Shown in pieces: positions 3,614-36,230 of a stretch of DNA of 64,000 bases. Source of the DNA: Nitrospiraceae bacterium (GTDB lineage: Bacteria; Nitrospirota; Nitrospiria; Nitrospirales; Nitrospiraceae); the NCBI GenBank assembly GCA_050246315.1, contig JBFWWG010000017.1, forward strand, positions 1 through 64,000, written 5' to 3'. The notes under the pieces are model-generated. The model saw only the letters and a program-made list of their open reading frames with translations. It had not been told where the DNA came from and did no database searches. A program made the position numbers and the translations under genes. The first letter of the stretch is position 1. Each line of letters opens with the position of its first letter.

Positions 3614-6148
3614 GTGCCCAAGGTGTTGGTTGATGTAGCAGTAGGACAGAATCGTCAGGTGAAACTCAGACAATGGGGTCAGTCGGCCTGGTGGCGAGGG
3701 GGGGCCTGTTTCATTTTGCTTGTGGCAGCCCTCACGGGCTGCATTCCCAGTGACGACGCACCGCCTGGGCCGAATCGCGCGGCGGACCTAGCCAATCTGG
3801 AACTGTCCGAGGGGGCGCTTTCTCCGGCTTTCGGTCCGGACGAACTGAACTACACTGTCTCGGTCGGTAGCAATATCAGTTCAATCACCATCACCCCGAC
3901 CGTGGCTGATGCCCGCGCCACGGTCAAGGTCAACAATACTCCAGCCCAGTCAGGACAGCCGTTCGGACCAGTCAATCTTGTGTTGGGCACCAATCCACCC
4001 ATCACCATACTGGTTGATGCTCCGGGGATCTCAAAAACCTACACCCTCGTCGTCACCCGTGCGCCGAATGCGGATCTGAAGGCGCTGCAACTGTCGGCCG
4101 GCGCGCTGGCGCCAGCTTTTTCGCCCAATGTCACCAATTACATGGTTGAGACGGGCTTCAGCACGCCATCGACCACCGTCACGGCCACCGTCGCGGATGA
4201 CACCTCTACAATAACGATCAACGGAAACGCCGCGACCTCGGGTCAGCCATCGAATCCCATCACTTTGAACGTCGGTTCCGCCAACGTCATTGTAGTTAGC
4301 GTGGCGGCGGCCAATGGCGAGACCAAGGACTACCAGATCACGGTACTGAAAACCGGCACGACCAATCTGGCCAGCTTAAGCATCTCGGCCGGTCCGATTG
4401 CGCCTGCCTTCAATCCCACTACTTTGGCCTATACGGTTTCGACGGGATACCCAACCGACCAGACTACGATCACGTTGAGTACCGCGGACAGCACCGCCGC
4501 CGTCACTGTCAACGGTCAGGGGCCGATCCAGGGAGGGGGGAGCTTCACGTTCCCGCTCCCAGTGGGACAAAATATTTTCACCATCTTGGTCACGTCGCCG
4601 ACTGTAGCGTCGAAAACCTATACGGTGACGATCACCCGGCAGCCACCTTCCACCAATGCCAATCTGTTGAATCTGACGGTCAGCCAGGGAACTCTTAACC
4701 CGCCATTCAATCCAGGTACCTTTGGTTACACCGTGAACGTGGGCAATTCGGTGACGAGCATCAATGTGACGGCAACGGTGCAGGATCCAGCGGCCTCTCT
4801 TCAGATCAATAATTCATCTGCGACTTCCGGACAGCCGTTTACGGTTGGTGGGCTGGTGGTCGGAGCCAACGGAATCAATATTGTCGTGACACCTCAAAGC
4901 GGGCCCCCGCAACTGTACACCGTCACGGTGAACCGGGCCACGCCGACATCGGGCAATTCCAATCTGGGAAGCTTGGCCGTCTCACCGGGAACATTACAGC
5001 CGGCATTCAACCCGAATACAAACAACTACAATGTCTCGGTTTCGAACGCGACGACCTCTGTCGTGGTGACGGCGACCACGCAAGATGGAAGCGCCACCAT
5101 GACGATCAATGGTCAGTCTGTTCAGTCCGGACAGGCCTTCACGGTTGGCAATCTCCAAGTCGGAAACAATACGGTCACCATTCGAGTCACCGCCCCGGCC
5201 GGCAACGCAGAAAATTATGTGGTGACGGTCAACCGAGCTGCCCCGCCGTCGAGCAATGCGAATCTTTCGAATCTGACTGTGTCGCCGGGCTCTCTCTCTC
5301 CAGGATTCAGTCAGTCGACGCTGAATTACAACGTGTCCTTGCCGTTCGCCAATTCCAGCATCAATGTGACGCCGACAGCCGCCAGTGGCAGTTCCGCGAT
5401 CACCGTCAACGGGCAGGGCGTCAATTCAGGAGGCACGGTGACCGTCAGCAACCTCGTGGTCGGCAACAATGTGATCATCGTGCGCGTCACCGCACAGGCG
5501 GGGAATTTGCGCGACTATGTCATCACCGTGAATCGCGCGGCGGCGTCCGGTAATGCGTTGTTGCAAAGCCTGACGCTGTCTCCAGTCAACATCTCGGGGT
5601 TTAGTCCCAACACGTTCACCTACAATGTCAATGTCGGGTTTGGAACGACGAGCGTGGTTGTCACCGCTGCTGTGCAGACCGGCACCTCCACGATGACGGT
5701 TAACGGCCAGGCGACCGCCTCGGGGCAGCCTCGTACCATCAGCGGGCTTCAGGTCGGAAATAACACGATCACCGTGCGTGTGACGGCTCAGGCAGGGAAT
5801 TCCCAGAATTATGTCATCACGGTGAATCGAGCAGCGGGTTCAGCCAACGCGGGCCTTTCAAGCCTGACTGTGAGTACTGGAACGCTCACACCGGCCTTTG
5901 TGTCTCCTGGTACGCCCGGCACACCGGGCTATACGCTAACAAGTGTACTTCCAAACACCGTGACCAGTTTCACGGTGACAGCGGCAAAGGCTGATCCAAA
6001 CGCCACTATGACTATCAATGGCGTTGTCCGATCCTCACACACAGTCAATCCTCTGCCGGCGGGGAACACAGTCTTCACCATCGTCGTTACTGCACAAGCT
6101 GGTAGCCCAAGCCTTACATATAGCGTCACAGTTACCCGTGCCCCTTAA
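3614..6148 (+). CDS. Lipoprotein with 8 cadherin-like beta-sandwich repeats
   Basis: Lipobox ALTG-CIP; same repeat consensus; start uncertain. Confidence 0.85.
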   Translation: MPKVLVDVAVGQNRQVKLRQWGQSAWWRGGACFILLVAALTGCIPSDDAPPGPNRAADLANLELSEGALSPAFGPDELNYTVSVGSNISSITITPTVADARATVKVNNTPAQSGQPFGPVNLVLGTNPPITILVDAPGISKTYTLVVTRAPNADLKALQLSAGALAPAFSPNVTNYMVETGFSTPSTTVTATVADDTSTITINGNAATSGQPSNPITLNVGSANVIVVSVAAANGETKDYQITVLKTGTTNLASLSISAGPIAPAFNPTTLAYTVSTGYPTDQTTITLSTADSTAAVTVNGQGPIQGGGSFTFPLPVGQNIFTILVTSPTVASKTYTVTITRQPPSTNANLLNLTVSQGTLNPPFNPGTFGYTVNVGNSVTSINVTATVQDPAASLQINNSSATSGQPFTVGGLVVGANGINIVVTPQSGPPQLYTVTVNRATPTSGNSNLGSLAVSPGTLQPAFNPNTNNYNVSVSNATTSVVVTATTQDGSATMTINGQSVQSGQAFTVGNLQVGNNTVTIRVTAPAGNAENYVVTVNRAAPPSSNANLSNLTVSPGSLSPGFSQSTLNYNVSLPFANSSINVTPTAASGSSAITVNGQGVNSGGTVTVSNLVVGNNVIIVRVTAQAGNLRDYVITVNRAAASGNALLQSLTLSPVNISGFSPNTFTYNVNVGFGTTSVVVTAAVQTGTSTMTVNGQATASGQPRTISGLQVGNNTITVRVTAQAGNSQNYVITVNRAAGSANAGLSSLTVSTGTLTPAFVSPGTPGTPGYTLTSVLPNTVTSFTVTAAKADPNATMTINGVVRSSHTVNPLPAGNTVFTIVVTAQAGSPSLTYSVTVTRAP

Positions 6149-6189
6149 CATAAGAGTATTCGTTCACAACAAGTCACAAGGTCACACCC

Positions 6190-7506
6190 ATGCAACACCC
6201 CATCCGGACAGCAACCAGGTCTCGGTCTCGGACAACCTATGCCGTCATCCGGTGCGCCCTGGCATTGATGATGACGGCACTCGCTGCGGCGGGCTGCATT
6301 CCGGATGGTGATTCACCCGCCGCCGGTCCGTCACCGGCCGATCTCTCGACGATGGAAGTCTCGGCCGGCCCTCTTGATCCGTCCTTCACTCCCACGGTCA
6401 GCAGCTATGATGTGCTGACCCCAAACGGGACCAGTTCGACGACCCTCACCGCCACCGCCTCCAATGCCTCGGCCAAACTGGCGGTCAATAATGAACCGGC
6501 TGTGTCGGGTCAGCCGTTCGGCCCGATTCCCCTGGAGGTCGGCATCAATCCGGTCACGGTGCTGGTGGATGCGCCGGGCGCCACGAAGAGCTACACCGTG
6601 GTCGTCACGCGCGGCGGGCCGGCCGATCTCTTTGACCTGGAACTCTCAGCCGGGTCGCTGTCTCCGGATTTCGATCCGGCCGTGACCGGGTATGCCGTGT
6701 CCGCTCCCTCCACGACGGCGCAGACCACTGTGACGGCCACGCTCTCCGACGAGCGGGCCACGTTCAAGATCAACGGCCAAGCGGGCACCTCCGGCCAGTC
6801 CTCGAATCCGATCTCTTTGGCGACGGGCAGCACGACGATCACGATCGTCGTTACGGCGGTGAATGCCACAACCAAGACCTATACGGTGTCAGTGAACCGG
6901 GCCGGGCCCGGCAATGCGAATCTGTCAGCGCTCCAATTGTCGGCAGGCGGGTTGAGCCCCGGCTTCAACCCCAATACGGTGAACTATTCGGTGGCGACCG
7001 CGAGCACGACTGCGACTACGACAGTGACCGCGACCGTGCAGGTGGCCAGCTCGACGCTCACGATCAACGGCAGTCCTGCGGTCTCGGGCGTGCCGTTTGG
7101 GCCGATTACCCTCAATCCCTCCGGCACCACCACCAAGATCACGATCACCGTTCGGGCCCAGGACGGCGTGACCCTCAAGACCTATACGGCCACCGTGTCG
7201 CGTGGGGCTTCCTCGAACTCGAATCTGGCCGGTCTGGTCCTGTCCGCTGGTCCGCTCAAGCCAGCCTTTAGTCCGACGAGAACGAGCTATGATGTGGATG
7301 CGTCGAAGACGACCGTCTCCACCACGGTCACGGCGACCGTCCAAGATGCAGGCGAGGCGACGTTGAAGATCGAGGGGGTCCCGGCGACCTCGGGCCGGCC
7401 GTTCGGACCAATTCTGCTTTTCGGGAAGACCACCCGTATCGATATCGAGGTACGGGCGCAGAACGGAAGTACCAAGACCTATCGGGTCGATGTGGAGAGG
7501 GATTAG
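6190..7506 (+). CDS. Lipoprotein with 4 cadherin-like beta-sandwich repeats
   Basis: Lipobox AAAG-CIP; same repeat consensus. Confidence 0.85.
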   Translation: MQHPIRTATRSRSRTTYAVIRCALALMMTALAAAGCIPDGDSPAAGPSPADLSTMEVSAGPLDPSFTPTVSSYDVLTPNGTSSTTLTATASNASAKLAVNNEPAVSGQPFGPIPLEVGINPVTVLVDAPGATKSYTVVVTRGGPADLFDLELSAGSLSPDFDPAVTGYAVSAPSTTAQTTVTATLSDERATFKINGQAGTSGQSSNPISLATGSTTITIVVTAVNATTKTYTVSVNRAGPGNANLSALQLSAGGLSPGFNPNTVNYSVATASTTATTTVTATVQVASSTLTINGSPAVSGVPFGPITLNPSGTTTKITITVRAQDGVTLKTYTATVSRGASSNSNLAGLVLSAGPLKPAFSPTRTSYDVDASKTTVSTTVTATVQDAGEATLKIEGVPATSGRPFGPILLFGKTTRIDIEVRAQNGSTKTYRVDVERD

Positions 7507-7536
7507 CGGCGCGGTCAGATTCGAATACCAACCCAC

Positions 7537-8973
7537 ATGATTCCTCGTGATCGCAGGCGCTGGCTCCTGCCCCGCTCCTGCGGGTGTAGGTTTGGATGGT
7601 TTCCCCCACATATTGTGTTGTCTCTTGAAATTATGTTAAGAGCGCTGTTCGTGTCCTCTCTACGTCCTCTCAAGAAGAAAGTCTTGTGGCCACCCTGGTG
7701 GCGGGCATGCGTGTGCGTCTGCGTGGTCCTGTTGGCGCTTTCGGGCTGTATTCCAGATCCCGATTCTCCTCCGGTGTCCTCCAATCCGGCGCTTGATCTC
7801 TCGGCGCTCCAGGTGCAGGAGGGCGGACAGGATCGCCCGTTGTCTCCCGCGTTTGCTCCCACCGTCACCAGCTACGTCGCGTCGGTGTCGAATCAAACGA
7901 CGAGTGTGACGGTGACGGCCTCGCTCGCCAACCCGCAACTCGCCAAGATGAAGGTCAACAATCAGTCGGTTCCCTCCGGACAACCTGTGGGACTCACCCT
8001 CGCCCCCGGGTCCAACCCGGTGGCCGTGTTGGTGGAGGAAACGGCGCCCAGTGGGGAGACGCGGATCTACAACCTGGTCGTCAACCGTGCGGCGCCGGGG
8101 AGCAATAAACTCGCGAGCCTGGTTCTTTCCACCGGGAGTCTGACTCCGATCTTTAATGGAGATCAAACGTCCTACAGCGCCGCGGTGCCGTTCGCGACGT
8201 CGCAGATCACCGTGACGGCGACGACCGAGGATCCGGCCGCCAAAATCACGATCAATAACCAGGCGGTGCCGAGTAGTCAGCCCTCTCCGCCCATTTCCTT
8301 GAATGTCGGGGCGAACAGCATCGTCGTGGTCGTCACGGCTCAGGATGGCTCGACCCGCAGTTACACCATCGTCGTCACGAGACAGGCGAACGTCAATTTG
8401 GCGAGCCTGTCCGTCTCGGCAGGGCCGTTGAGTCCGCCGTTCAATAAGGATGTGACGGAATATCAAGTCAGTGCTCCGAACCTAACGAGCAGCACCACGA
8501 TTACCGCAACGATCGAGCAGGCCGGCTCTACTCTGGCGATCAATGGGCAACCGGTGGCTTCCGGCCAAGTCTTCGGCCCCGTGCCGCTCGTGGTCGGCCC
8601 CAATAGTTTTGCCGTATCCGTGATGGCTTCCGATCGGATCACGGTAAAGACCTACACGGTTGTGATCAACCGTGCGCCGTCCTCCAACGCCCTCCTGTCC
8701 GCGCTGACGGTCTCGCCGGGTGTCATGATCCCGACGTTTAGTTCCGGCGTCCCGACCTACACGGTCCTCAACGCGGGCCTCTTTACGCCGGCTGCGAATG
8801 TGACGGCGACAGTCCAAGAGCCGAATGCTACGATCATGATCAACGGTGCCGCGGTTGCATCCGGAACGCCGTTTCAGGTTCTCTTGCCCGCTCCATCGAC
8901 CCCTGTCAGCATCGTGGTCCGCGCCCAAGATACCGTCACGACCGCGACCTACAACGTGACGGTCAACAAATAA
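7537..8973 (+). CDS. Lipoprotein with 4 cadherin-like beta-sandwich repeats
   Basis: Lipobox ALSG-CIP; true start probably downstream of the AT-rich patch at ~7610-7640 (e.g. GTG 7651). Confidence 0.85.
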   Translation: MIPRDRRRWLLPRSCGCRFGWFPPHIVLSLEIMLRALFVSSLRPLKKKVLWPPWWRACVCVCVVLLALSGCIPDPDSPPVSSNPALDLSALQVQEGGQDRPLSPAFAPTVTSYVASVSNQTTSVTVTASLANPQLAKMKVNNQSVPSGQPVGLTLAPGSNPVAVLVEETAPSGETRIYNLVVNRAAPGSNKLASLVLSTGSLTPIFNGDQTSYSAAVPFATSQITVTATTEDPAAKITINNQAVPSSQPSPPISLNVGANSIVVVVTAQDGSTRSYTIVVTRQANVNLASLSVSAGPLSPPFNKDVTEYQVSAPNLTSSTTITATIEQAGSTLAINGQPVASGQVFGPVPLVVGPNSFAVSVMASDRITVKTYTVVINRAPSSNALLSALTVSPGVMIPTFSSGVPTYTVLNAGLFTPAANVTATVQEPNATIMINGAAVASGTPFQVLLPAPSTPVSIVVRAQDTVTTATYNVTVNK

Positions 8974-8987
8974 GTCCACACTCACAG

Positions 8988-11201
8988 ATGCCATCCGCTG
9001 CCTCATTGTGCAGTCCTCGCCAGAGCGAGGGGTTGCGTTGGGGTTGTGTCTGTCCAAGACGAAGAGCCGCCCTGGTGCTTTTGCGAGGCGTGCTGCTCGC
9101 AGCCGTGGCCGGTGGGTGCATCCCCAGCTCGGACCCTCCGGCCGGTCCTCCCGGCAGCACGCCGGGCGATCTCGCCTCATTGGTGGTATCGGCCGGCGCG
9201 CTCTCCCCGGCTTTTGATCCTGCCGTGACGAGTTATGCCGTCCTGGTCCCCAATGCCACGACCAGCACGACCGTCACGGCGACGGCGGCCGAGCGGCAGG
9301 CGAAGATCAGTGTCAATAATCAGGTTGCGACGGCTGGCCAGCCGTTCGGGCCGATCGCGCTTGCCGTCGGCCAGACCACCGTGACGGTGGTCGTGGATGG
9401 GCCGGGATTCAACAAGACCTACACCATCGTCATGACACGGGCCGCTGCGGCGATCGCCGACCTCACGAGCTTGCAGGTTTCGGCCGGAGGGATCAGTCCG
9501 CGCTTCGATCCGCAGGTGCTGGCCTATTCGGTTTTGGCCGCGAACTCCACCACGAGCACGACGATCACTGTCACGGTGGCCGATCCGACGGCGGCGGTCG
9601 CGATCAACAATCAACAGGCCGCGTCCGGTCAACCGTTTGGTCCGGTCCCGCTCGTTCTGGGACCCAATGCCATCACCATCGTGGTGACAGCTCCGGGCGG
9701 CGCGGTCAAAATTTACTCAGTTGCCATCGTCCGCGGCGCGTCCGGCATCGCCGACCTGGCCTCGCTGTCTCTATCGGCGGGCGCACTGTCCCCGGGGTTC
9801 ACGCCGGATCAAGCCAGCTACAGGATTGCGACGGGAAATTCGACGACGCAAACCACCATCACGGCTGTCGTCGCCGATGCCACGGCCACCTTGACCATCA
9901 ACGGCACCCCGGCCACCTCCGGTCAGCCATTCGGGCCGATCGGCCTGACTATCGGGGTGAATATCTTGACGGTCCGGGTGACGGCGCAGGACGGATCCGC
10001 GAAGGTCTATACGATCGAAATCACCCGCCCGCCGTCGAGCAATGCCAATTTGTCCGCGCTGGTATTGTCGGCCGGGGCTTTATCTCCGGCCTTTTCCGAA
10101 GACACCTTGGACTATAGCCTCTCGGTGCCCAGCACGACCGCGAGCACGACCGTGACCGCGACCGTCGCCGACGCAACAGCCTCGGTGCAGGTCAATGGCC
10201 AGCCTGTGGGCTCGGGGCAAGCTTCGTTGCCCATCGCGCTCAACGTCGGGACGAATCGGATCCCCATTGTCGTGACGGCGCAGAATGGGACAGCCAAGAC
10301 CTATACCGTGACCGTGGAGCGCACAGTCTCGACCAATCTCGCCGGGCTGACGGTGTCGGCTGGGTCGTTGTCGCCGGCCTTCAGTGCAGGGACGACGGCC
10401 TATAGTCTGAGCGTTCCCAATACCACGAGCAGTACGACCGTGACCGCGACGGTTCAAGATCCGACGGCGACCCTCACGATCAACGGGGCGTCGGCCAATT
10501 CAGGGCAAGCCTTCGGTCCGGTTGTCTTGAATGTCGGGCCCAATCAGGTGACGGTGATCGTGCGGGCCTTGAACGGGGCGACCAAGACCTACACGGTCAC
10601 CATTGCCAGGGCAGCCAACGTCAATCTCGGAGGTCTCAGTCTGTCGGCCGGTACACCCACACCTCCGTTCGATCCATCGGTCACCAGCTACAATCTCTCA
10701 GTCCCCAATGGGACGACGACCACGACCGTCACGGCCTCGGTACAAGATGCGACGTCCACGCTGACGATCAACGGCCAGTCGGTGCCCTCGGGTCAGGCGT
10801 TCGGGCCGATCGCGCTCGCGGTGGGGCCAAATACGGTGACTATCGTCGTCAGGGCGGTGGACACGGTGACGACCAAGACCTACTCGGTTGCCATCACCAG
10901 GGCGCCGTCCTCCAATGCGCTGCTGGCCGGGTTGCAGGTCACTCCGGGGTTCATGATTCCGGCGTTTAGTCCGGGGGGCACAACCTATGCGGTCAATGGC
11001 GTCGGCCTCTTCACCCCCGCGGTGACCGTGACGGCGACGGTGCAGGAGCCGAATGCCACGATCATGATCAACGGCGCCGCCGTCGCCTCCGGAACGCCGT
11101 TTCAAGTGCTCCTGCCCGGTCCGTCGACTCCCATCGCGATCGTCGTCCGTGCGCAAGATACGGTGACGACCGTGACCTACAACGTGACGGTGAACAAATA
11201 G
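8988..11201 (+). CDS. Lipoprotein with 7 cadherin-like beta-sandwich repeats
   Basis: Lipobox VAGG-CIP; same repeat consensus. Confidence 0.85.
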   Translation: MPSAASLCSPRQSEGLRWGCVCPRRRAALVLLRGVLLAAVAGGCIPSSDPPAGPPGSTPGDLASLVVSAGALSPAFDPAVTSYAVLVPNATTSTTVTATAAERQAKISVNNQVATAGQPFGPIALAVGQTTVTVVVDGPGFNKTYTIVMTRAAAAIADLTSLQVSAGGISPRFDPQVLAYSVLAANSTTSTTITVTVADPTAAVAINNQQAASGQPFGPVPLVLGPNAITIVVTAPGGAVKIYSVAIVRGASGIADLASLSLSAGALSPGFTPDQASYRIATGNSTTQTTITAVVADATATLTINGTPATSGQPFGPIGLTIGVNILTVRVTAQDGSAKVYTIEITRPPSSNANLSALVLSAGALSPAFSEDTLDYSLSVPSTTASTTVTATVADATASVQVNGQPVGSGQASLPIALNVGTNRIPIVVTAQNGTAKTYTVTVERTVSTNLAGLTVSAGSLSPAFSAGTTAYSLSVPNTTSSTTVTATVQDPTATLTINGASANSGQAFGPVVLNVGPNQVTVIVRALNGATKTYTVTIARAANVNLGGLSLSAGTPTPPFDPSVTSYNLSVPNGTTTTTVTASVQDATSTLTINGQSVPSGQAFGPIALAVGPNTVTIVVRAVDTVTTKTYSVAITRAPSSNALLAGLQVTPGFMIPAFSPGGTTYAVNGVGLFTPAVTVTATVQEPNATIMINGAAVASGTPFQVLLPGPSTPIAIVVRAQDTVTTVTYNVTVNK

Positions 11202-11270: not shown

Positions 11271-12389
11271 CTAGTCATGCGAGGGCTCCCTGCGCGCTGG
11301 CTCACCCGGCGAACGTTCGGTGAACCGTTCCACGCGGACGCCCAGCAGCCGGAATGCCTTGCCTTTTGGATTGCGCCGCTTGTCCAGAAAGGGCAGAAGG
11401 AGCTTGAGGGCTTCGGCACGCACGAGCCGCACGTCCGAGGCTGGAGCATCGAGGGTGTGAGCTCGCGAGGTCGTCTCGAAATCCGAAAATCGCACCATCA
11501 CCGCCACGGTCCCGACATGGGAGAAACCCTCCGTTCGTACCCGGTCCATCACGTCCCCGCACATGCGGGCCAGATAGGTAAGTAGTTGAGTGGCGTCACG
11601 CGTGTCGGCGGCGAATGTTTCCTGTTCGCTGATCGATTTCGGCGTCCATTCTGAAGACAGCGACGATTCGTCCCGTCCTCTTGCCCTGTCGTAAAAATCA
11701 GCGCCACGTTTGCCGAATGTCGCACACAGCTCGCCGATCGAACGTGCCGCCAATTCGCTGATTCGAATGATGCCTTGTTGTGCCAGGAGCGCTTCGGTCT
11801 TCGGACCGATTCCCGGAATCATCCGAACCGGCAGCGGTGCCAGAAACGATTCGACTGCTTCCGGTCGGACGACGGTCAGGCCGTCGGGTTTCCGAAATCC
11901 CGATGCGATCTTGGCGATCAGCTTGTTTGGGCCCAATCCCACCGACATCGTGAGCCCCTCCTGTTCCCGAACCTCCTGCTTGAGCCTGTGGCAGCGGTCT
12001 TCGGCGGCTTCGAACGCTCCGGATGGGCTAAGGTCGAGGTAGGCCTCATCGATGCTGGCCTGTTCAACGAGGTCGGCATAGCACCGGCACAGGGACATGA
12101 TCGCGCCGGACACCGCCGCATACTTGGCCATGTTGGGACGCAGAAAGACGACCGGTGGCCGGCCGTGCCTCCTGGCCCGTTCGGCATCGCGCCAGGCTTG
12201 CGAGATCGGCTGTGCCGAGTGGAGACCGTAGGCCCGCGCCGCATAGTTGGCGGTGGCCACGACGCCGCGTCCGTGCCCGCCGAGGGGATCTGCGCCGATC
12301 GCGATCGGGAGGCCGCCCAACTCCGGGCGGTCGCGCTCCTCGATCGCGGCGAAGAAGGCGTCCATATCTACGTGCGCCACGAGTCGCAT
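11271..12389 (-). CDS. dinB: DNA polymerase IV (Y-family)
   Basis: MRLVAHVDMDAFFA, ANYAARAYG, SIDEAYLD, KLIAKIAS...KPDG; start set at ATG 12389. Confidence 0.93.
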   Translation of the reverse strand: MRLVAHVDMDAFFAAIEERDRPELGGLPIAIGADPLGGHGRGVVATANYAARAYGLHSAQPISQAWRDAERARRHGRPPVVFLRPNMAKYAAVSGAIMSLCRCYADLVEQASIDEAYLDLSPSGAFEAAEDRCHRLKQEVREQEGLTMSVGLGPNKLIAKIASGFRKPDGLTVVRPEAVESFLAPLPVRMIPGIGPKTEALLAQQGIIRISELAARSIGELCATFGKRGADFYDRARGRDESSLSSEWTPKSISEQETFAADTRDATQLLTYLARMCGDVMDRVRTEGFSHVGTVAVMVRFSDFETTSRAHTLDAPASDVRLVRAEALKLLLPFLDKRRNPKGKAFRLLGVRVERFTERSPGEPARREPSHD

Positions 12390-12412
12390 GGGGTGGGATG
12401 GGGTTGGGCCGG

Positions 12413-12841
12413 CTACGACGGCTGAGCCGGCGGCCCGGGCGGCATCGTCGCTTGGATGACGTGAAAATCCTTCTGCGCGATCAGGCGACGGGACATCATC
12501 AGCCGGAACTCGTACCGGCCGGGTGCGGGAAACACCAGGGCCGGGATGTTGATCCCGAAATCGGAGATCTGCAACCGGTCTCGGATCTCGACGCTCGGGA
12601 GGGAGGCGCGGCAAACGACCTGGTCGGTGTTGAGATAGACGAGCGTGATGTCGAACTGGTAGGGGCCTTGTGCGTCGGTGAGGCAGAAGTAGATGCCGAG
12701 TTGCTGATGCTGGCACGGAAACACCTGAGCCTGCAGGTGGGTGAAGAGCCCGATGAGACTTTTCTTGTGCGTGAGACTGTCTTCGATCACCGTATCGCAG
12801 ACGAGGAACGCTTGGATGCTGGGAGCTACCAGTTCTGACAT
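12413..12841 (-). CDS. Conserved hypothetical beta-sandwich protein (DUF6941-like)
   Basis: FLVCDTVIED...KKSLIGLF...FPAPGRYEFRL pattern. Confidence 0.7.
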   Translation of the reverse strand: MSELVAPSIQAFLVCDTVIEDSLTHKKSLIGLFTHLQAQVFPCQHQQLGIYFCLTDAQGPYQFDITLVYLNTDQVVCRASLPSVEIRDRLQISDFGINIPALVFPAPGRYEFRLMMSRRLIAQKDFHVIQATMPPGPPAQPS

Positions 12842-12879
12842 CGTGCGACCTCGCAGGGGCCAGTCGGATCGGAGGACCT

Positions 12880-13332
12880 TCAGCCGATGGCCGCCGACCC
12901 GCCTCGGCATTCAAACACCTCGCCGAAATGGGCGACGCCGGGGCCGATTCGGCAGACATGCGGTGTGACCTCCACGCGCTCCCCCCTATGGGTGAAGAAT
13001 CGGCCTTGGACCAGGTCGATGCGGCCTTCCGTCATGACGGCCGCTTCAACATACACCTCCCCGGTTTTCCGATCCGAGACTGTGACCCAAGGGTTGGGAC
13101 CAAAGGATGAGAGGGCGGGCGGATTGGTCTGGAGAGCAAGGCGCTGGCCCTCATTGAAGACCCACTGGTTGCGGCGCACATGCGCGACGTGGATGCCTCG
13201 CTCGTCATAGAAATCCATCGTGAGCCAGAGTTGCCCGGACCGGTATTCGAGAACGAGTTGTTCCTTGCCCTGAAACTTAAGGACGCCGTTGGAGTCCCGC
13301 ACGATGTTTGAGCCTAGTTTGATTTCCAGCAT
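12880..13332 (-). CDS. Hypothetical protein
   Basis: 150-aa ORF from MLEIKLGSN with gagg SD and protein-like composition. Confidence 0.65.
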   Translation of the reverse strand: MLEIKLGSNIVRDSNGVLKFQGKEQLVLEYRSGQLWLTMDFYDERGIHVAHVRRNQWVFNEGQRLALQTNPPALSSFGPNPWVTVSDRKTGEVYVEAAVMTEGRIDLVQGRFFTHRGERVEVTPHVCRIGPGVAHFGEVFECRGGSAAIG

Positions 13333-13649: not shown

Positions 13650-14057
13650 TCAGGGAGCAGAGCCGGCGGCTTCCAGAAAGGTCGGAGGGCCTTCTCCCGC
13701 CGAGTTGGTCGCGGTCACACAAATCTTGGCCGTGGGGCTATTACCGGCCCCCGCCGGAAGAATCACCTCCCTGGCGACCGGTCCGCCTCCTGCGACGCTC
13801 GTCGCACTGTGCTTGGTGTATTCTTTGGTTCCGGCTCCAATGTTGTAATAGATGGTCGTGTGCGAGAGGTAGTGGAGCGGCTGCCCGTTCTGTTGGAGGG
13901 TTGGCTCCGTGTATCGGATGGGAATGGTTCGGTTCGCCGGGATCGGTAGGGGAGCCGAGGGCGAGCAATCAACACGAACGGTGGTGCCTTCCGCCAAGTC
14001 GAGCAACGTGCAGGAGGAGAGCGAACTGAGCATCATGGGCAGCAGGATGGCGGCCAT
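13650..14057 (-). CDS. Putative lipoprotein with an FnIII/Ig-like domain
   Basis: Hydrophobic N-terminus ending LSS-C; YTEPT...LSHTTIYY...VTATNSAGEG. Confidence 0.6.
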   Translation of the reverse strand: MAAILLPMMLSSLSSCTLLDLAEGTTVRVDCSPSAPLPIPANRTIPIRYTEPTLQQNGQPLHYLSHTTIYYNIGAGTKEYTKHSATSVAGGGPVAREVILPAGAGNSPTAKICVTATNSAGEGPPTFLEAAGSAP

Positions 14058-14179
14058 GGACAACCTTTGCGAGCGCAGGGTCGGTCGCAGCATGTCCCAA
14101 CATTACGAGATCAAGTGGCTGGCAAGCAAGAGGGGGAACTAACTCGAAGGAGACGGCATGAACCGTACGAATCCCCCAT

Positions 14180-14209
14180 TTGAAAACTGGGAAAACCCTG
14201 TGATAGAGT
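14180..14209 (+). promoter_or_regulatory. Sigma70-type promoter of tRNA-Glu
   Basis: TTGAAA-N18-TAGAGT with extended -10 TG, followed by GC-rich ccgcc. Confidence 0.55.
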
Positions 14210-14258
14210 CCGCCTCTTGCGGCAACCGCTGTCTGATCAACCCGCTGCACGACTCGGC

Positions 14259-14336
14259 GGTCCCATCGTCTAGCCTGGCCTAGGACGGAGCCCTCTCAAG
14301 GCTCAGACACGGGTTCGAATCCCGTTGGGACCACCA
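14259..14336 (+). tRNA. tRNA-Glu (anticodon CTC)
   Basis: GGTCCCA acceptor stem, anticodon arm GAGCC-CT CTC AA-GGCTC, GGTTCGAATCC T-arm, encoded CCA. Confidence 0.96.
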
Positions 14337-14823
14337 TACCAAGCTATGGCTTGAGCCGGTCGCTCTTTTGAGCTTTATCGTCATTGACGCGACCGGAGAA
14401 ACACCTTCAGTGTCCCTTTTTTTCTTAATCCTTAACCCAACTTCGGTTGAGCCGGCGGCTCTTCAGGCGCAGCCTCTCTTCATTGGGCGGGCGGATAAAC
14501 ACCTCCAGTAAATCGCTCTCACCTACCATACCAACCTTCGGTTGAACCGCTCGCCTCTTTATCGTTTTATCGTGAGTAAGGCGAGCGGAGGAATCCTTCA
14601 GTGTCTTCATTCAATACCAAGCTACGCTTGAGCCGGCGGCTATTCTGGGCCTCATCGTAGCTGACGCCGCCAGAGGGACACCACCAGGGAATTTCGATTC
14701 TGAATCCGCACTTCGTGAGAACCGGCGGCTCATCGGGCGAAGCCCCCTCTACCAGGCTATGCCTGAACCGGCGCCTCTTCATCGCTTTCTCGTAATATGG
14801 CGGCGCCGGGAAAACATTTTCAG
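14337..14823 (+). repeat. tRNA-linked tandem array of structured degenerate repeats (5 full units, 1 partial)
   Basis: Unit = (a)tacc + small hairpin + GA + GC-rich long stem-loop + rAAACACCTTCAG-like tail; the stems covary between units. Confidence 0.75.
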
Positions 14824-14966
14824 ATTCGTGCCTGACCGGTCAACTCTCGAATTCTGAATTCTGATGATGCAGCCCGCTGCCCGGCGTCAATCCGAGCCGG
14901 TGTCTCCGCGGTTGCTGTGCAACAGGTATTTCTCGTCGTGCAACCGGACTTGTCGCGCTAACGGGG

Positions 14967-15179
14967 TCATCTGCCGTTCCCGCCACTGGTGCGACGTAAG
15001 AATGTGAGCAGCCCGAGGAGAACGATAACGGCTGCACCGAGGCCAAACCACGGCACCGCGGTCCAGGGATTGCCATTCGTCACATAACTGACAATCCAAT
15101 GCCCTGCAAACACCAGGGCCAGTATCAGCAAGGCGGCAATCACCATGGTTCCCAGTGTCGGTGGTTCGGTGGCAGGCAT
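14967..15179 (-). CDS. Small two-TM membrane protein (70 aa)
   Basis: Strong SD aaggaggg before ATG 15179; two hydrophobic helices. Confidence 0.7.
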   Translation of the reverse strand: MPATEPPTLGTMVIAALLILALVFAGHWIVSYVTNGNPWTAVPWFGLGAAVIVLLGLLTFLRRTSGGNGR

Positions 15180-15928
15180 GGCTCCCTCCTTTTTCACAAA
15201 CCCAATGCTCATCTGACGAAACATTCGAGGTAGGCCAACTGGGGCTGGTCCTCGCCTAGCCGCATCATGACTCATGATCGGCCGATGTAACGATCGGTGG
15301 GGCGAGGGTCTGGCCTCCGAACGAATCAAAGCGCTTTTTGTAGATATGCGCACGCTTCCACCTAACAGCGTGCTGAACCTTCGCCACTTCACAACCAGTC
15401 CGTCCCCACCAGTAGGGCTGATGGCGATGGTGATGGTGGCACTCCGGCCTTCGAACCACGGGTGGTCATGCCGAAGCGCTCGGGGCTGAGACTCTAATTC
15501 AGGTCAAGACGCTTCTCAAGTCTCAAGTAGCTGCCTTCCGAAATATCGCCATCGACGGCAAGGTCATTGGGGAGAGATGGGGCAGCATCGGGCCATAGCA
15601 TAAGCGCTCTCCTGGTCCGGTTGTAACGAGTTCGGCATGGGCGGATGTCATCGGAAAGGACCGCTATGAGAACCAGATGGGCATAGGTCCAGTTTGATCC
15701 AACCATTCAGCCGATGTCATAGGAGTGCCTGGATTCTACCCAGCCGTTCACCGATCTGTTAAGAGTCTGCCCACGTCATTCCTCCGTTGCGGCAGGATGG
15801 CGAAGCATCGAACAAGCTCCCAGAGCCGGCGCGGCTGCTCGCATAGGTCCAAGAGTCGTTGGATCCGACAAGCCCGTTCTATCTGAGGCCGGGATTCTCT
15901 TGCCGGCACTGGAGGGAAGAGGGGATAC

Positions 15929-16373: not shown

Positions 16374-16403
16374 TTGACGCTCTCCGGCAGGGTTGTGTAT
16401 AAC
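16374..16403 (+). promoter_or_regulatory. Putative sigma70 promoter of the polyamine cluster
   Basis: TTGACG-N18-TATAAC. Confidence 0.45.
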
Positions 16404-16449
16404 CATAGTTCGTCCGATCCTTTTCGATTGTCAGCAGCGGAGAAACCCC

Positions 16450-17634
16450 GTGCAGGGACGTGAATTCAGAGATGGCGCTGAAGACGGGCTGGATGCGCTG
16501 GAGCCGCTCGACCCGGACCGCATCGGATCGTTTGCCGATCTGATCGCCGCGATGCGGAAGACCGCGTTCGGCGGGCGCCGGGTGGGAGAGGCGTTTGACG
16601 TGCTCTGCGCCATGGTCGACGATCCCGATTGCATGGTCGTGATGACCCTGTCCGGCGCCATGACGATCGCCAAGATGGGCACGATCATCAGCCGGATGAT
16701 CGACGAGGGGATGGTCCAGGTCGTCATCTCGACCGGTGCGCTGGTGGCGCATGGGTTGAGTGAATCGACGGGCAAGCAGCATTATCGGCATGACCCGACG
16801 ATGAGCGACGTGGAATTGTTTCGCAAGGGCTACAACCGGGTATACGACACCTTGGAGATGGAGGCCAACCTCAACTATGTCGAGCATGTGGTCACGCAGA
16901 CTCTGAAGCGGCTGGACCACGACACGCCCCTCTCGTCGGAACGCCTCACCTACGAACTCGGCAGGACCCTGCACGAAGAATTCGAAGGAACCGGGATTCT
17001 CAAGAGTGCCTATGAACAGGGGGTGCCGGTCTATATTCCGGCCTTTACCGATTCTGAGATGGGCTTGGATGTCGGCATCTGGGCGATGCGGGAATCGCTG
17101 GACAAGGCACGCGCAGAGGCTTCCAAACGGGATGGCGATCTGGGAGTGCTGAAGGCGCTGCATCGGTATCTGCCTTCGTACAATCCGTATTTGGATTTGA
17201 ACAGCTACACCGACAAGATCATGTCGGCCAAGCGCTTGGGGATCTTTACGATCGGCGGCGGGGTGCCTCGGAATTGGGCGCAACAGGTCGGACCCTATAT
17301 CGAAATCGGCAATTTGCGGCTGGGGCTCGACGCCAAAGCCCCTCGCTTCCAATACGGTGTGCGGATCTGTCCTGAACCGGACTATTGGGGCGGGCTCAGC
17401 GGCTGTACCTACCAGGAAGGCATTTCCTGGGGCAAGTTTGTGCCGCCGTCCGATGGCGGTCGATTTGCCGAAGTGCTCAGCGATGCCACGGTGGTGTGGC
17501 CGCTGTTGATGATGGGGCTGCTGGAGCATCGGCGGGCGCGTCGACGGAAACCTTCGGCCGATGAAGACCGTTCCATTCGGTCCGCCCGGTCGTCTCGCAC
17601 CAAACGGAGAGGGGTCGCCGGCCGTCTTCGTTGA
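16450..17634 (+). CDS. Deoxyhypusine synthase-like protein (probable homospermidine synthase)
   Basis: STGALVAH, PAFTDSEMG, IGGGVPRNW, GGLSGCTYQEGISWGK (catalytic Lys present). Confidence 0.9.
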   Translation: MQGREFRDGAEDGLDALEPLDPDRIGSFADLIAAMRKTAFGGRRVGEAFDVLCAMVDDPDCMVVMTLSGAMTIAKMGTIISRMIDEGMVQVVISTGALVAHGLSESTGKQHYRHDPTMSDVELFRKGYNRVYDTLEMEANLNYVEHVVTQTLKRLDHDTPLSSERLTYELGRTLHEEFEGTGILKSAYEQGVPVYIPAFTDSEMGLDVGIWAMRESLDKARAEASKRDGDLGVLKALHRYLPSYNPYLDLNSYTDKIMSAKRLGIFTIGGGVPRNWAQQVGPYIEIGNLRLGLDAKAPRFQYGVRICPEPDYWGGLSGCTYQEGISWGKFVPPSDGGRFAEVLSDATVVWPLLMMGLLEHRRARRRKPSADEDRSIRSARSSRTKRRGVAGRLR

Positions 17635-25410: not shown

Positions 25411-25525
25411 TCGCAGGCTGCTGAATCAGACCGCCAGCTTTTGGTTCTCGCGTCGTTCAGAGGCTCAACGTACGGAAAGACGTACGGCCTTCGCCTCTTC
25501 GCTCGCTGCGGCCGCGCTGGCGGTC
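25411..25525 (+). repeat. Dispersed MITE-like repeat (inverted homologue at 30796-30904)
   Basis: ...ccagctt..gttctcgc..gttcagaggctcaacgtacggaaa..gtacg..cttcgcctc.tcgctcgctgcgg shared with the reverse complement of 30796-30904. Confidence 0.7.
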
Positions 25526-34975: not shown

Positions 34976-35198
34976 TGAGGAAGGGAGGCAGACCTGAAAC
35001 AGTCTGTTGTCAGACTGAGCGGCGAGCCCGCCCGCCATACCAAGGTTCACTTGAACCGCCACCTTCGATCCTATCGCGGCGGAGAGCCACTTGGCCTTCG
35101 ACTTCGCAGGTTGGCATATCGCAGCGACGAATCGAGGCGCCCGTTGCTCTCTTGTTTTAATGGGCCAAGGCAGCAGAAGCGCTGATGAATAAGGTGGG

Positions 35199-36230
35199 CT
35201 AGGGCAGTCTGTTGAGGTGGTCGATGAGCTGGCGCAACCGCCCAGCGCTCCGCCGGTTGAAGGCAAAGACGAGCCGCGGGAGGTTGGAGAGGGCCGGTTC
35301 GTCCAATTCCTCCGGCAAGGCACTCCGCTGCTGGAACTGCCCGTCGGCCAACAGGTCAGCGAATTGGTTCTGGAGCGCCGCGACCTGGTCATCGGTGATG
35401 GGACGCTGGAGGCGCATGGCGAGCTGGCGGCCGACGAAGCGCAACGAGTGATAGGCCCGGTAAAATAACTGGATTTCACTGACCGCCTCGTCTTCCGATT
35501 CGACGATGCGGAAGAGGCTCAAATCCTCGTGATTGATCAAGCCTCGCCGGAGAAGGTCATCCTGAATAAAGTCATGCCAGCGATGCCAATAGGTGCAACC
35601 GGGTGCCTGAAGGCAGACGATCGGTTTGGGGTCGCTTTTTCCTGTTTGCGCCAGGGTCAGGACTTCGAATCCTTCATCGTGGGTGCCGAATCCTCCGGGG
35701 AACAGGGCAATGGCGTTGGCTTCCTTTTGGAACATCAGTTTTCGGGTAAAGAAGTATTTGAACGTGATCAACTTGGGATCGTCGGCGATTGTCGAGTTTG
35801 CACCTTGCTCGAAGGGAAGCATGATGTTTACCCCGAAACTGTGCTCGCGGCCCGCGCCCTCCTGCGCGGCACGCATGATGCCGTCCGCGCCGCCGGTGAT
35901 GACCATGTAACCGTGGGCCACGATTCGTTGTGCGAAGCGGGAGGCCAGTTGGTACAGTGGGTCATCGGCCGGTGTCCGTGCCGATCCGAACACGCTGACC
36001 TTTGGGCGATTGCGATAGTCCCGAAAGACCGCGAACGCATGGCGGAGTTCCTTCATCGCTCGAGTAAGGATTTTCAGATCCAGTAGATCCAGTTGGGCGT
36101 CGTGCAGTTTGAGGACATTGGCGACGATCTCCCGCATGAGAGACGCGCGGAGATCATCCTCGCGACCGTCCAACAACGTCCCCAGTTGCGAGAGCATCTC
36201 TTCCTTCGAAGGCAACACTCTTGAGCGCAT
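35199..36230 (-). CDS. LOG-family nucleotide phosphoribohydrolase
   Basis: FGSART, TGGADGIM, YFFTRK, PGGFGTHDE. Confidence 0.9.
   Translation of the reverse strand: MRSRVLPSKEEMLSQLGTLLDGREDDLRASLMREIVANVLKLHDAQLDLLDLKILTRAMKELRHAFAVFRDYRNRPKVSVFGSARTPADDPLYQLASRFAQRIVAHGYMVITGGADGIMRAAQEGAGREHSFGVNIMLPFEQGANSTIADDPKLITFKYFFTRKLMFQKEANAIALFPGGFGTHDEGFEVLTLAQTGKSDPKPIVCLQAPGCTYWHRWHDFIQDDLLRRGLINHEDLSLFRIVESEDEAVSEIQLFYRAYHSLRFVGRQLAMRLQRPITDDQVAALQNQFADLLADGQFQQRSALPEELDEPALSNLPRLVFAFNRRSAGRLRQLIDHLNRLP

Follow-up and report, generated by a model that had tools for sequence, protein, structure and literature searches.

What kind of element is the row of structured units that directly follows a tRNA gene in this Nitrospiraceae genome? 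The window, meaning the whole 64,000-nt stretch of DNA that was analysed, carries a single tRNA, tRNA-Glu(CTC), called by ARAGORN at 14259-14336 on the plus strand. A first-pass annotation had described tandem units behind this gene and read them either as a co-transcribed non-coding RNA or as an array of single-stranded-DNA recombination sites. The units, hairpins, stem-2 arms, tails and 7-T run that it listed behind the tRNA are all present in the sequence, as is ACCATACCA ahead of unit 3. Nothing lies between the tRNA and the array, which consists of five full units and one half unit with heads at 14336, 14433, 14528, 14614, 14703 (the half unit) and 14749. The placement of the units stands, with the junction shifted: it had been set one base too late, since the A at the junction is both the last base of the tRNA (the end of CCA) and the first base of the head ATACC. 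The partial unit reported near 14708 is also real, with its head corrected to 14703. It is a unit split in its loop by the following unit, like the nesting seen at other loci. The features of the locus, and one isolated unit elsewhere in the window, are:

14180..14209, plus strand: predicted sigma-70-like promoter 5' of the tRNA (consensus match TTGAAA-18-TAGAGT with TG)
14259..14336, plus strand: tRNA-Glu(CTC), CCA encoded (ARAGORN; Rfam RF00005)
14331..14340, plus strand: array junction, target CCACC and then head ATACC (from the sequence, the target logo of 223 heads and empty orthologues)
14336..14432, plus strand: unit 1, open-loop type, with tail and T-rich linker (78.5 bits)
14433..14527, plus strand: unit 2, inner-hairpin type, head decayed and two mismatches in stem 2 (72.5 bits)
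14528..14613, plus strand: unit 3, open-loop type (63.2 bits; its orthologue is the first unit behind tRNA-Glu in the related genome G002)
14614..14702, plus strand: unit 4, open-loop type (68.1 bits)
14703..14748, plus strand: left half of an inner-hairpin unit (HMM positions 5-45; ends after CCTCT, where the next unit starts)
14749..14826, plus strand: last unit, unit 5 (61.7 bits)
35038..35099, plus strand: isolated short-loop unit within a MITE-like repeat (21.2 bits, E 2.5e-5; junction CCGCC/ATACC)

The proposed covariance model, trained on 64 copies, gives each of the five full units 62-79 bits (E 4e-26 to 5e-20), values that are partly circular since the five are among those copies. The proposed Rfam search, at gathering and E-value thresholds, returns the tRNA as the sole match, with array matches at E above 3. 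The 7-T run at 14417-14423 belongs to the linker of unit 1 and is not called by a terminator scan. Between 0.31 and 0.57 of sampled words of 13900-15300 are present in six RNA runs from three studies, a signal that is not specific to the array or to a strand. The tRNA region is flanked by a DinB/Pol IV-family polymerase gene (11271-12959, minus strand) and a deoxyhypusine-synthase-family gene (16393-17634, plus strand). Further upstream, 3614-11201 on the plus strand holds four tandem long ORFs (438-844 aa) with repeated cadherin-like beta-sandwich modules and lipoprotein-like starts, as judged by eye.

The unit is about 90-100 nt long and non-coding, and no ORF is conserved among the units. 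From the head ATACC, a full unit runs through a 5-bp hairpin and a junction of 2 nt into the 8-bp stem 2, followed by a purine tail (GGAGAAA-CACCNCCAG) and a pyrimidine-rich linker. The loop of stem 2 is variable, 25-30 nt long, and often includes an inner 4-bp hairpin. Mean pairwise identity between units is 65%, and only 12 of 6216 unit pairs are at least 97% identical. Two features picked out by eye were dropped since neither is kept across units: a small ORF on the minus strand of unit 1 and some similarity to domain V of group II introns.

The covariation of both stems claimed for this array is real, and structure is kept while sequence varies. Across 64 distinct copies from the genome of the window (G000) and its relatives, 93.6% of cells are paired and both-side changes occur at 11 of 17 pairs. 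Cells changed on both sides number 128 versus 38 in shuffles, and 0 of 500 shuffles reach as high, with the relatedness of copies inflating the counts. Sliding the register drops pairing to 26-46%, far below the true register. Several pairs occur in three Watson-Crick types, which agrees with the covariation, as do the highest ranks by mutual information. On either strand, units 1, 3 and 5 are more stably folded than their shuffles (z about -3.1 to -3.8) and units 2 and 4 are not (z +0.8 to -0.9). The folding energies of the two strands are close.

The hairpin loops are mostly C(GNA)G, with C-G closure in 105 of 112. Among 223 first hairpins, 184 show GNA when read on the minus strand; for the inner hairpins it is the plus strand that reads GNA, in 76 of 87. 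Such d(GNA) loops closed by C-G are unusually stable in DNA (PMC3201870). Wobble pairs favour no strand consistently. Counted on the plus strand, hairpin 1 has 34 G-T versus 10 A-C, with 25 of the 34 G-T at a single position, and the inner hairpin has 23 versus 10; stem 2 leans the opposite way with 19 G-T versus 32 A-C (p 0.09).

The unit is widely dispersed. Searching G000 gives 65 matches, and an iterated profile gives 159 matches in 98 arrays, a lower bound since short-loop variants are missed by the profile. None of the 98 arrays mixes strands. Scored candidates are positive in 132 of 150 cases in G000, 138 of 150 in G001, 88 of 150 in G007 and 66 of 150 in G050. Within the family, the covariance model matches 99 of 111 genomes (up to 41 candidates scored per genome), and copy number per genome spans none found to more than 130. 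A phylum sample has matches in 15 of 18 family members versus 2 of 102 others, both borderline. The exact pattern occurs at 59 loci among species genomes, 58 of them in genomes named Nitrospira, Nitrospiraceae or Nitrospirota and one in a genome named otherwise, which points to this host group. Viral contigs hold 0 matches to one exact 31-letter pattern, and blastn finds no match in plasmid and phage collections. A head follows tRNA-Glu at 44 metagenome loci (3 duplicates), where the first unit varies by lineage.

This dispersal, with the unit in sense at tRNAs and antisense at ribosome-binding sites, speaks against the tRNA-Glu-specific co-transcribed RNA of the first-pass annotation, as do the lack of a consistent wobble strand and base pairs that break about as fast as other intergenic sequence changes. 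Its second option fares better, since single-stranded-DNA sites remain a live possibility. The scatter across the genome that it had named as grounds against its own reading is indeed seen (98 arrays), although the units match no described REP or MITE family. The literature searched, which included little of the subscription literature, holds no description of the unit family. On balance, we read the array as stacked copies of a mobile repeat of Nitrospiraceae that is non-coding and non-autonomous, and the unit family is most likely a small selfish DNA element.

Where do the copies land? The arrays all begin at one junction, C-C-N-C-Y/ATACC, and C stands at -5, -4, -2 and -1 in 73, 77, 82 and 82% of 223 distinct heads. 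Sorted by our own pattern rules, 18 of the 98 G000 arrays start in sense at tRNA/tmRNA 3' ends (16 direct and 2 displaced tRNA ends), one in antisense at a tRNA 5' end, 27 in antisense against Shine-Dalgarno sites, 48 within MITE-like repeats (23 in M1 and 25 in M2) and four in no assigned class. Units also nest in their own loop (CCTCT), their own stem (CCGCC) and the M1 hairpin loop.

M1 and M2 are our labels for two MITE-like repeats with terminal inverted repeats, which have at least 36 and at least 43 pattern matches in G000. Each has a hypervariable, compensated internal hairpin slot that a unit can replace. Copies of these repeats in the window lie at 25513 (minus strand), 30805 (plus strand) and 34990-35203 (plus strand).

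At tRNAs, the first A of the unit completes the CCA. Genes with a unit no more than 15 nt from the CCA number 16 of 47 in G000, 11 of 47 in G001 and 16 of 46 in G002, an assembly that is 9% contaminated and some of whose loci are identical to G001 loci. In G000, no units are found behind rRNA-operon tRNAs and several presumably abundant tRNAs, and they are common behind minor ones. At Shine-Dalgarno sites, units end 6-13 nt short of the start codon. Nineteen such loci were compared, 12 filled and 7 empty in G000, and six of the seven empty orthologues read CCTCC and then T, so the A belongs to the unit and the unit does not bring the core of the site. An antisense array sits directly against base 1 of tRNA-Ser(TGA), as it does in relatives (L069, L126); read on the opposite strand, the start of this gene is CCTCC.

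The 5-base target does not account for site choice. By our own crude gene calls, CCTCC is used at 20 of 732 Shine-Dalgarno sites versus 5 of 2824 intergenic occurrences elsewhere and 1 of 12395 in coding sequence (odds ratio 16, p 3e-10). CCACC is used at 16 of 47 tRNA/tmRNA ends versus 5 of 2084 intergenic occurrences.

The arrays are polar. The first unit outscores the last in 27 of 28 arrays, on a score from a model trained on the same matches, and the head is intact in 65 of 98 first units versus 22 of 78 inner units. No unit was found upstream of a head in the 98 arrays. At the tRNA-Glu locus, unit 3 of the window is the first unit in G002, so units 1 and 2 were either gained at the CCA or lost there. 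G001 has a different array about 3 kb from tRNA-Glu, behind a partial tRNA copy, and is without a unit directly behind the gene because other DNA displaced the array. Arrays behind partial tRNA copies occur at L075, G000:C2:515477 and G000:C11:162063 (Glu, Ser and Lys). Such positions show that islands which had entered at the tRNA moved the array away, and the units mark old attachment sites.

Of 53 arrays in relatives, 29 are filled in G000, 14 are without an alignable orthologue and 10 were called empty, two of which hold units missed by the HMM. Most sites are old and common to the genus (29 of 39 alignable). Sites confined to one lineage turn up in several genera, and all of them have this same precise junction. 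At C11:93745, no more than about 5 nt separate the junction from the point where the flank picks up again, and similar pyrimidine 5-mers stand at both ends, a pattern that fits insertion or precise loss. In two filled/empty pairs checked for target-site duplication, the pyrimidine 5-mers of the two ends are similar and not identical. Loss through microhomology could account for the clean empty sites. All units of the C11:93745 array have a common hairpin-1 variant and its extra unit is a copy of its neighbour, so recombination clearly operates inside arrays. At L308 the extra unit resembles an in-array duplication, and in the tRNA-Ala array the unit bodies are replaced and the linkers retained.

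Once installed, copies decay almost neutrally, and weak constraint remains compatible with the data. Among 28 units orthologous between G000 and G002, stems change at 5.5% versus 7.3% for other intergenic sequence (p 0.08) and 4.0% for coding sequence, so that the stems are slightly better kept than their surroundings. Of the 35 pairs that changed in these units, 26 show one change into or out of a non-Watson-Crick state. Compensated double changes number just two and were discounted, since they come from aligning window unit 1, which has no counterpart at the same position in G002, to a non-orthologous unit.

With moderate confidence, we propose that the unit is a non-autonomous element that moves as folded single-stranded DNA and is cut and joined in trans. 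The precise single junction, the nesting, the polarity, the DNA-type loops and the orientation-blind placement favour this model. An enzyme supplied in trans would read the hairpins, cut at the head junction and join the head to a site ending in CC; an HUH-like nick-and-join chemistry is our guess by analogy. Since the junction survives insertion, each later unit would insert there again and displace the older ones outward, with neighbouring units recombining so that copies are duplicated, deleted and homogenised. The covariation would then reflect selection on copies still being copied, not on function in place. Insertion keeps the CCA and the Shine-Dalgarno sequence intact, so such sites would be tolerated.

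The excess at tRNA ends and ribosome-binding sites is left over by the single-stranded-DNA model. A rather unlikely reading is that the repeats find their sites by RNA landmarks (CCA ends and ribosome-binding sites) and not by DNA sequence alone, forming polarised arrays with a self-regenerating junction through a host or unrecognised enzyme, possibly a reverse transcriptase (RT) whose template jumping links RNA ends. If true, such site choice would be a new targeting logic. A specific scheme of RNA-end capture, which we judge distinctly improbable, has an RT jump from a primer with a terminal A to the 3' end of the minus-strand unit RNA and copy that RNA; the primer would be the CCA of a tRNA itself or a cDNA newly arrived at the 5' end of a processed mRNA or of a tRNA. 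The mRNA would be trimmed to the ribosome-protected Shine-Dalgarno site and the chimera would recombine into the matching gene. This accounts for the excess at tRNA ends and Shine-Dalgarno sites, unlike the 5-base target, and for the antisense array at the first base of tRNA-Ser(TGA) here and in relatives, although that start also reads CCTCC on the opposite strand. One precise and one ragged end are what target-primed copying gives. An RT is present in all four genomes of this genus, but both in G000 belong to diversity-generating cassettes, and an RT match exists in only 39 of 111 genomes and in none of G007, G050 and G047. Moreover, the nested and MITE sites are not RNA ends, the loops are of DNA type, and the integration step is left without explanation. 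A host-maintained structured RNA, acting either behind tRNAs as a trailer that directs 3' maturation or is processed into small RNAs, or before a ribosome-binding site as a leader that tunes translation, seems to us quite unlikely. It would explain the strong covariation, the presence in 99 of 111 family genomes and at the same tRNAs across the genus, the 44 metagenome loci with a head after tRNA-Glu, and a unit tail that resembles the anti-Shine-Dalgarno end of the G000 16S gene. The plus-strand excess of G-T over A-C in hairpin 1 (34:10) and the inner hairpin (23:10) points the same way, but stem 2 has the opposite lean and a single position supplies 25 of the 34 hairpin-1 G-T pairs. Opposite unit strands would be transcribed at tRNAs and at ribosome-binding sites, about half of the arrays lie within MITE-like repeats, copy number runs from none found to more than 130, and G001, with its array displaced, has no unit behind tRNA-Glu. 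The neighbouring genes have no function in common, and decay is near-neutral.

Exact tandem copies, a hairpin-1 variant common to a whole array and the tRNA-Ala bodies replaced between retained linkers could all arise with no present mover. An ancient element would have seeded the sites, arrays would since have changed by recombination, slippage and gene conversion, MITEs would carry some copies as passengers, and hairpin-templated repair would yield the compensated changes. The 29 of 39 alignable sites common to the genus and the failure to find an enzyme agree with this; we nevertheless think it unlikely, as lineage-specific sites with the same precise junction occur in several genera, nesting at new internal CCGCC and CCTCT points needs no long homology, and the origin of the sites is left without explanation. 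It is very unlikely that the unit is a conventional MITE or an IS110-derived mini-element moved by a DDE or bridge-RNA recombinase. Two filled/empty pairs whose ends carry near-duplicated pyrimidine 5-mers, and the IS110 genes of G000 and G001, would suit such a mover, but the unit has no terminal inverted repeats, its head and tail are not complementary, and the 5-mers at inner junctions are not copies of each array's target. No unit lies near the IS110 genes, and IS110 is not found in 58 of 111 genomes, including G007, G047 and G050.

For the favoured element moving as single-stranded DNA, a partner enzyme was sought. The profiles used were Y1, IS110, RT and Y2. Judged on assemblies, the 111 family genomes have Y1 in 75, IS110 in 53, RT in 39 and Y2 in 6, and none of these tracks with the unit. 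The Y2 matches (PF04986) include none of this genus. The high-copy genomes G007 and G050 have no Y1, IS110, RT or Y2 profile match in their assemblies, and the units may outlive their enzyme. In G000, no unit lies near the eight Y1 genes, the four IS110 matches or the two RTs, and relatives have none in 30 Y1 loci (the best 30 of about 200 matches) or 20 IS110 loci. Split left and right unit ends do not surround any ORF. A Pfam scan of 123 ORFs (116 of 150 beside exact-pattern loci, plus the 7 window ORFs) and an all-against-all comparison of 234 G000 neighbours yield no recurring family or shared function and no recurring mobile-element-like group, respectively. The arrays have no leading or lagging strand bias (40 of 87), unlike IS608-type elements, which do show a replication-strand bias (PMC6006769).

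Y1 (RAYT-like) genes whose products are about 300-330 aa long and extended at the C-terminus are found repeatedly in the family, with no units beside them (for example L011, G000:C20). Both G000 RTs lie within diversity-generating cassettes at G000:C5:66359-69997 (L023) and G000:C3:243662-247303 (L024), which comprise a small ORF, the RT, a repeat and a sulfatase-modifying-factor-like gene. We take these to be diversity-generating retroelements from their gene order and motifs.

The units work like REP/BIME elements or MIRUs and belong to neither, nor to TLR, REP2, CRISPR or attC sequences. REP/BIME (REPIN) elements with their RAYT and the ends of IS200/IS605 are likewise short, non-coding, intergenic, hairpin-based, clustered and present in many copies. 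REP/BIME elements are thought to be moved in trans as single-stranded DNA (PMC6006769). The units differ in their length of about 90-100 nt with three modules, in their direct head-to-tail order without inverted doublets within an array (0 of 98 mixed), and in a marked preference for tRNA ends and Shine-Dalgarno sites. Facing arrays in other genera (L239) start from separate junctions, unlike the inverted doublets of REP/BIME. The column profile of 112 units shows no GT(A/G)G-type tetranucleotide at the 5' foot of a hairpin on either strand, unlike REP, and no RAYT/Y1 gene is flanked by units at the eight G000 Y1 loci or at the best 30 of about 200 in relatives.

MIRUs form tandem arrays, as do these units. 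They are likewise 40-100 bp long, occur in dozens of copies within operons with filled and empty sites, and have no known transposase (PMC3184786). MIRUs have ORFs overlapping their neighbours and 4-bp direct repeats (PMC3184786), whereas no ORF is conserved in these units, which also settle at tRNA ends. The TLR of E. coli likewise consists of tandem units directly 3' of tRNA genes (PMC8144298). However, TLRs end in an 18-19-bp copy of the 3' end of their own tRNA and are confined to tRNA/rRNA operons (PMC8144298), whereas here only ACCA (4 nt) precedes unit 3 and 19 of 98 arrays are at tRNA/tmRNA ends. Each TLR belongs to its own tRNA, and the Nitrospiraceae unit is one family behind many tRNAs.

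Neisseria REP2 and Borrelia IR-A/B likewise have two stem-loops and no terminal inverted repeats, and lie directly 5' of many genes (PMC3184786). REP2 itself holds promoter and ribosome-binding site together with an ATG (PMC3184786), whereas here CCTCC pre-exists in six of seven empty sites and the start codon is outside the unit. The multicopy nucleotide sequences of Geobacter and Pelobacter are likewise lineage-specific, intergenic, palindromic and non-randomly clustered (PMC2996986). The available text of that source describes no tRNA-end or Shine-Dalgarno rule for them (PMC2996986), and they are set apart here by description and not by compared alignments.

Other classes of repeat were considered and rejected. 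The array is no CRISPR, as the first-pass annotation had also held, given the mean identity of 65%, the lack of an Rfam CRISPR match and the absence of a Cas family from seven nearby window ORFs. A TIR-type MITE does not fit, since head and tail are not complementary, and an IS91-like rolling-circle element does not fit because PF04986 occurs in 6 of 111 genomes and in none of this genus. Integron attC sites carry RYYYAAC ... GTTRRRY boxes in every site. AAC/GTT occurs here in one hairpin-1 variant only, the others being AGC/GCT or CAC/GTG, which rejects a cassette array.

No mover is known for most small bacterial repeats. Here, the base-precise junction, the two unusual safe harbours (CCA end and Shine-Dalgarno site) and the covarying structure make the mechanism directly testable. 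The units also serve as a warning for structured-RNA screens, as they covary like riboswitches or small RNAs and occupy the positions typical of such RNAs. Insertions next to ribosome-binding sites in operons could alter expression, a point that matters for nitrifier biology.

Two further sites were recorded. In G001, a three-unit array (L294) stands between a stop codon and the next ribosome-binding site, where the genes overlap in G000 (G000:C9:135982); the flanking genes are presumably rsmH and ftsL. In three genomes (L127, L133, L138), units lie behind a conserved non-tRNA sequence ending in GGCGTCC, possibly the end of another small RNA.
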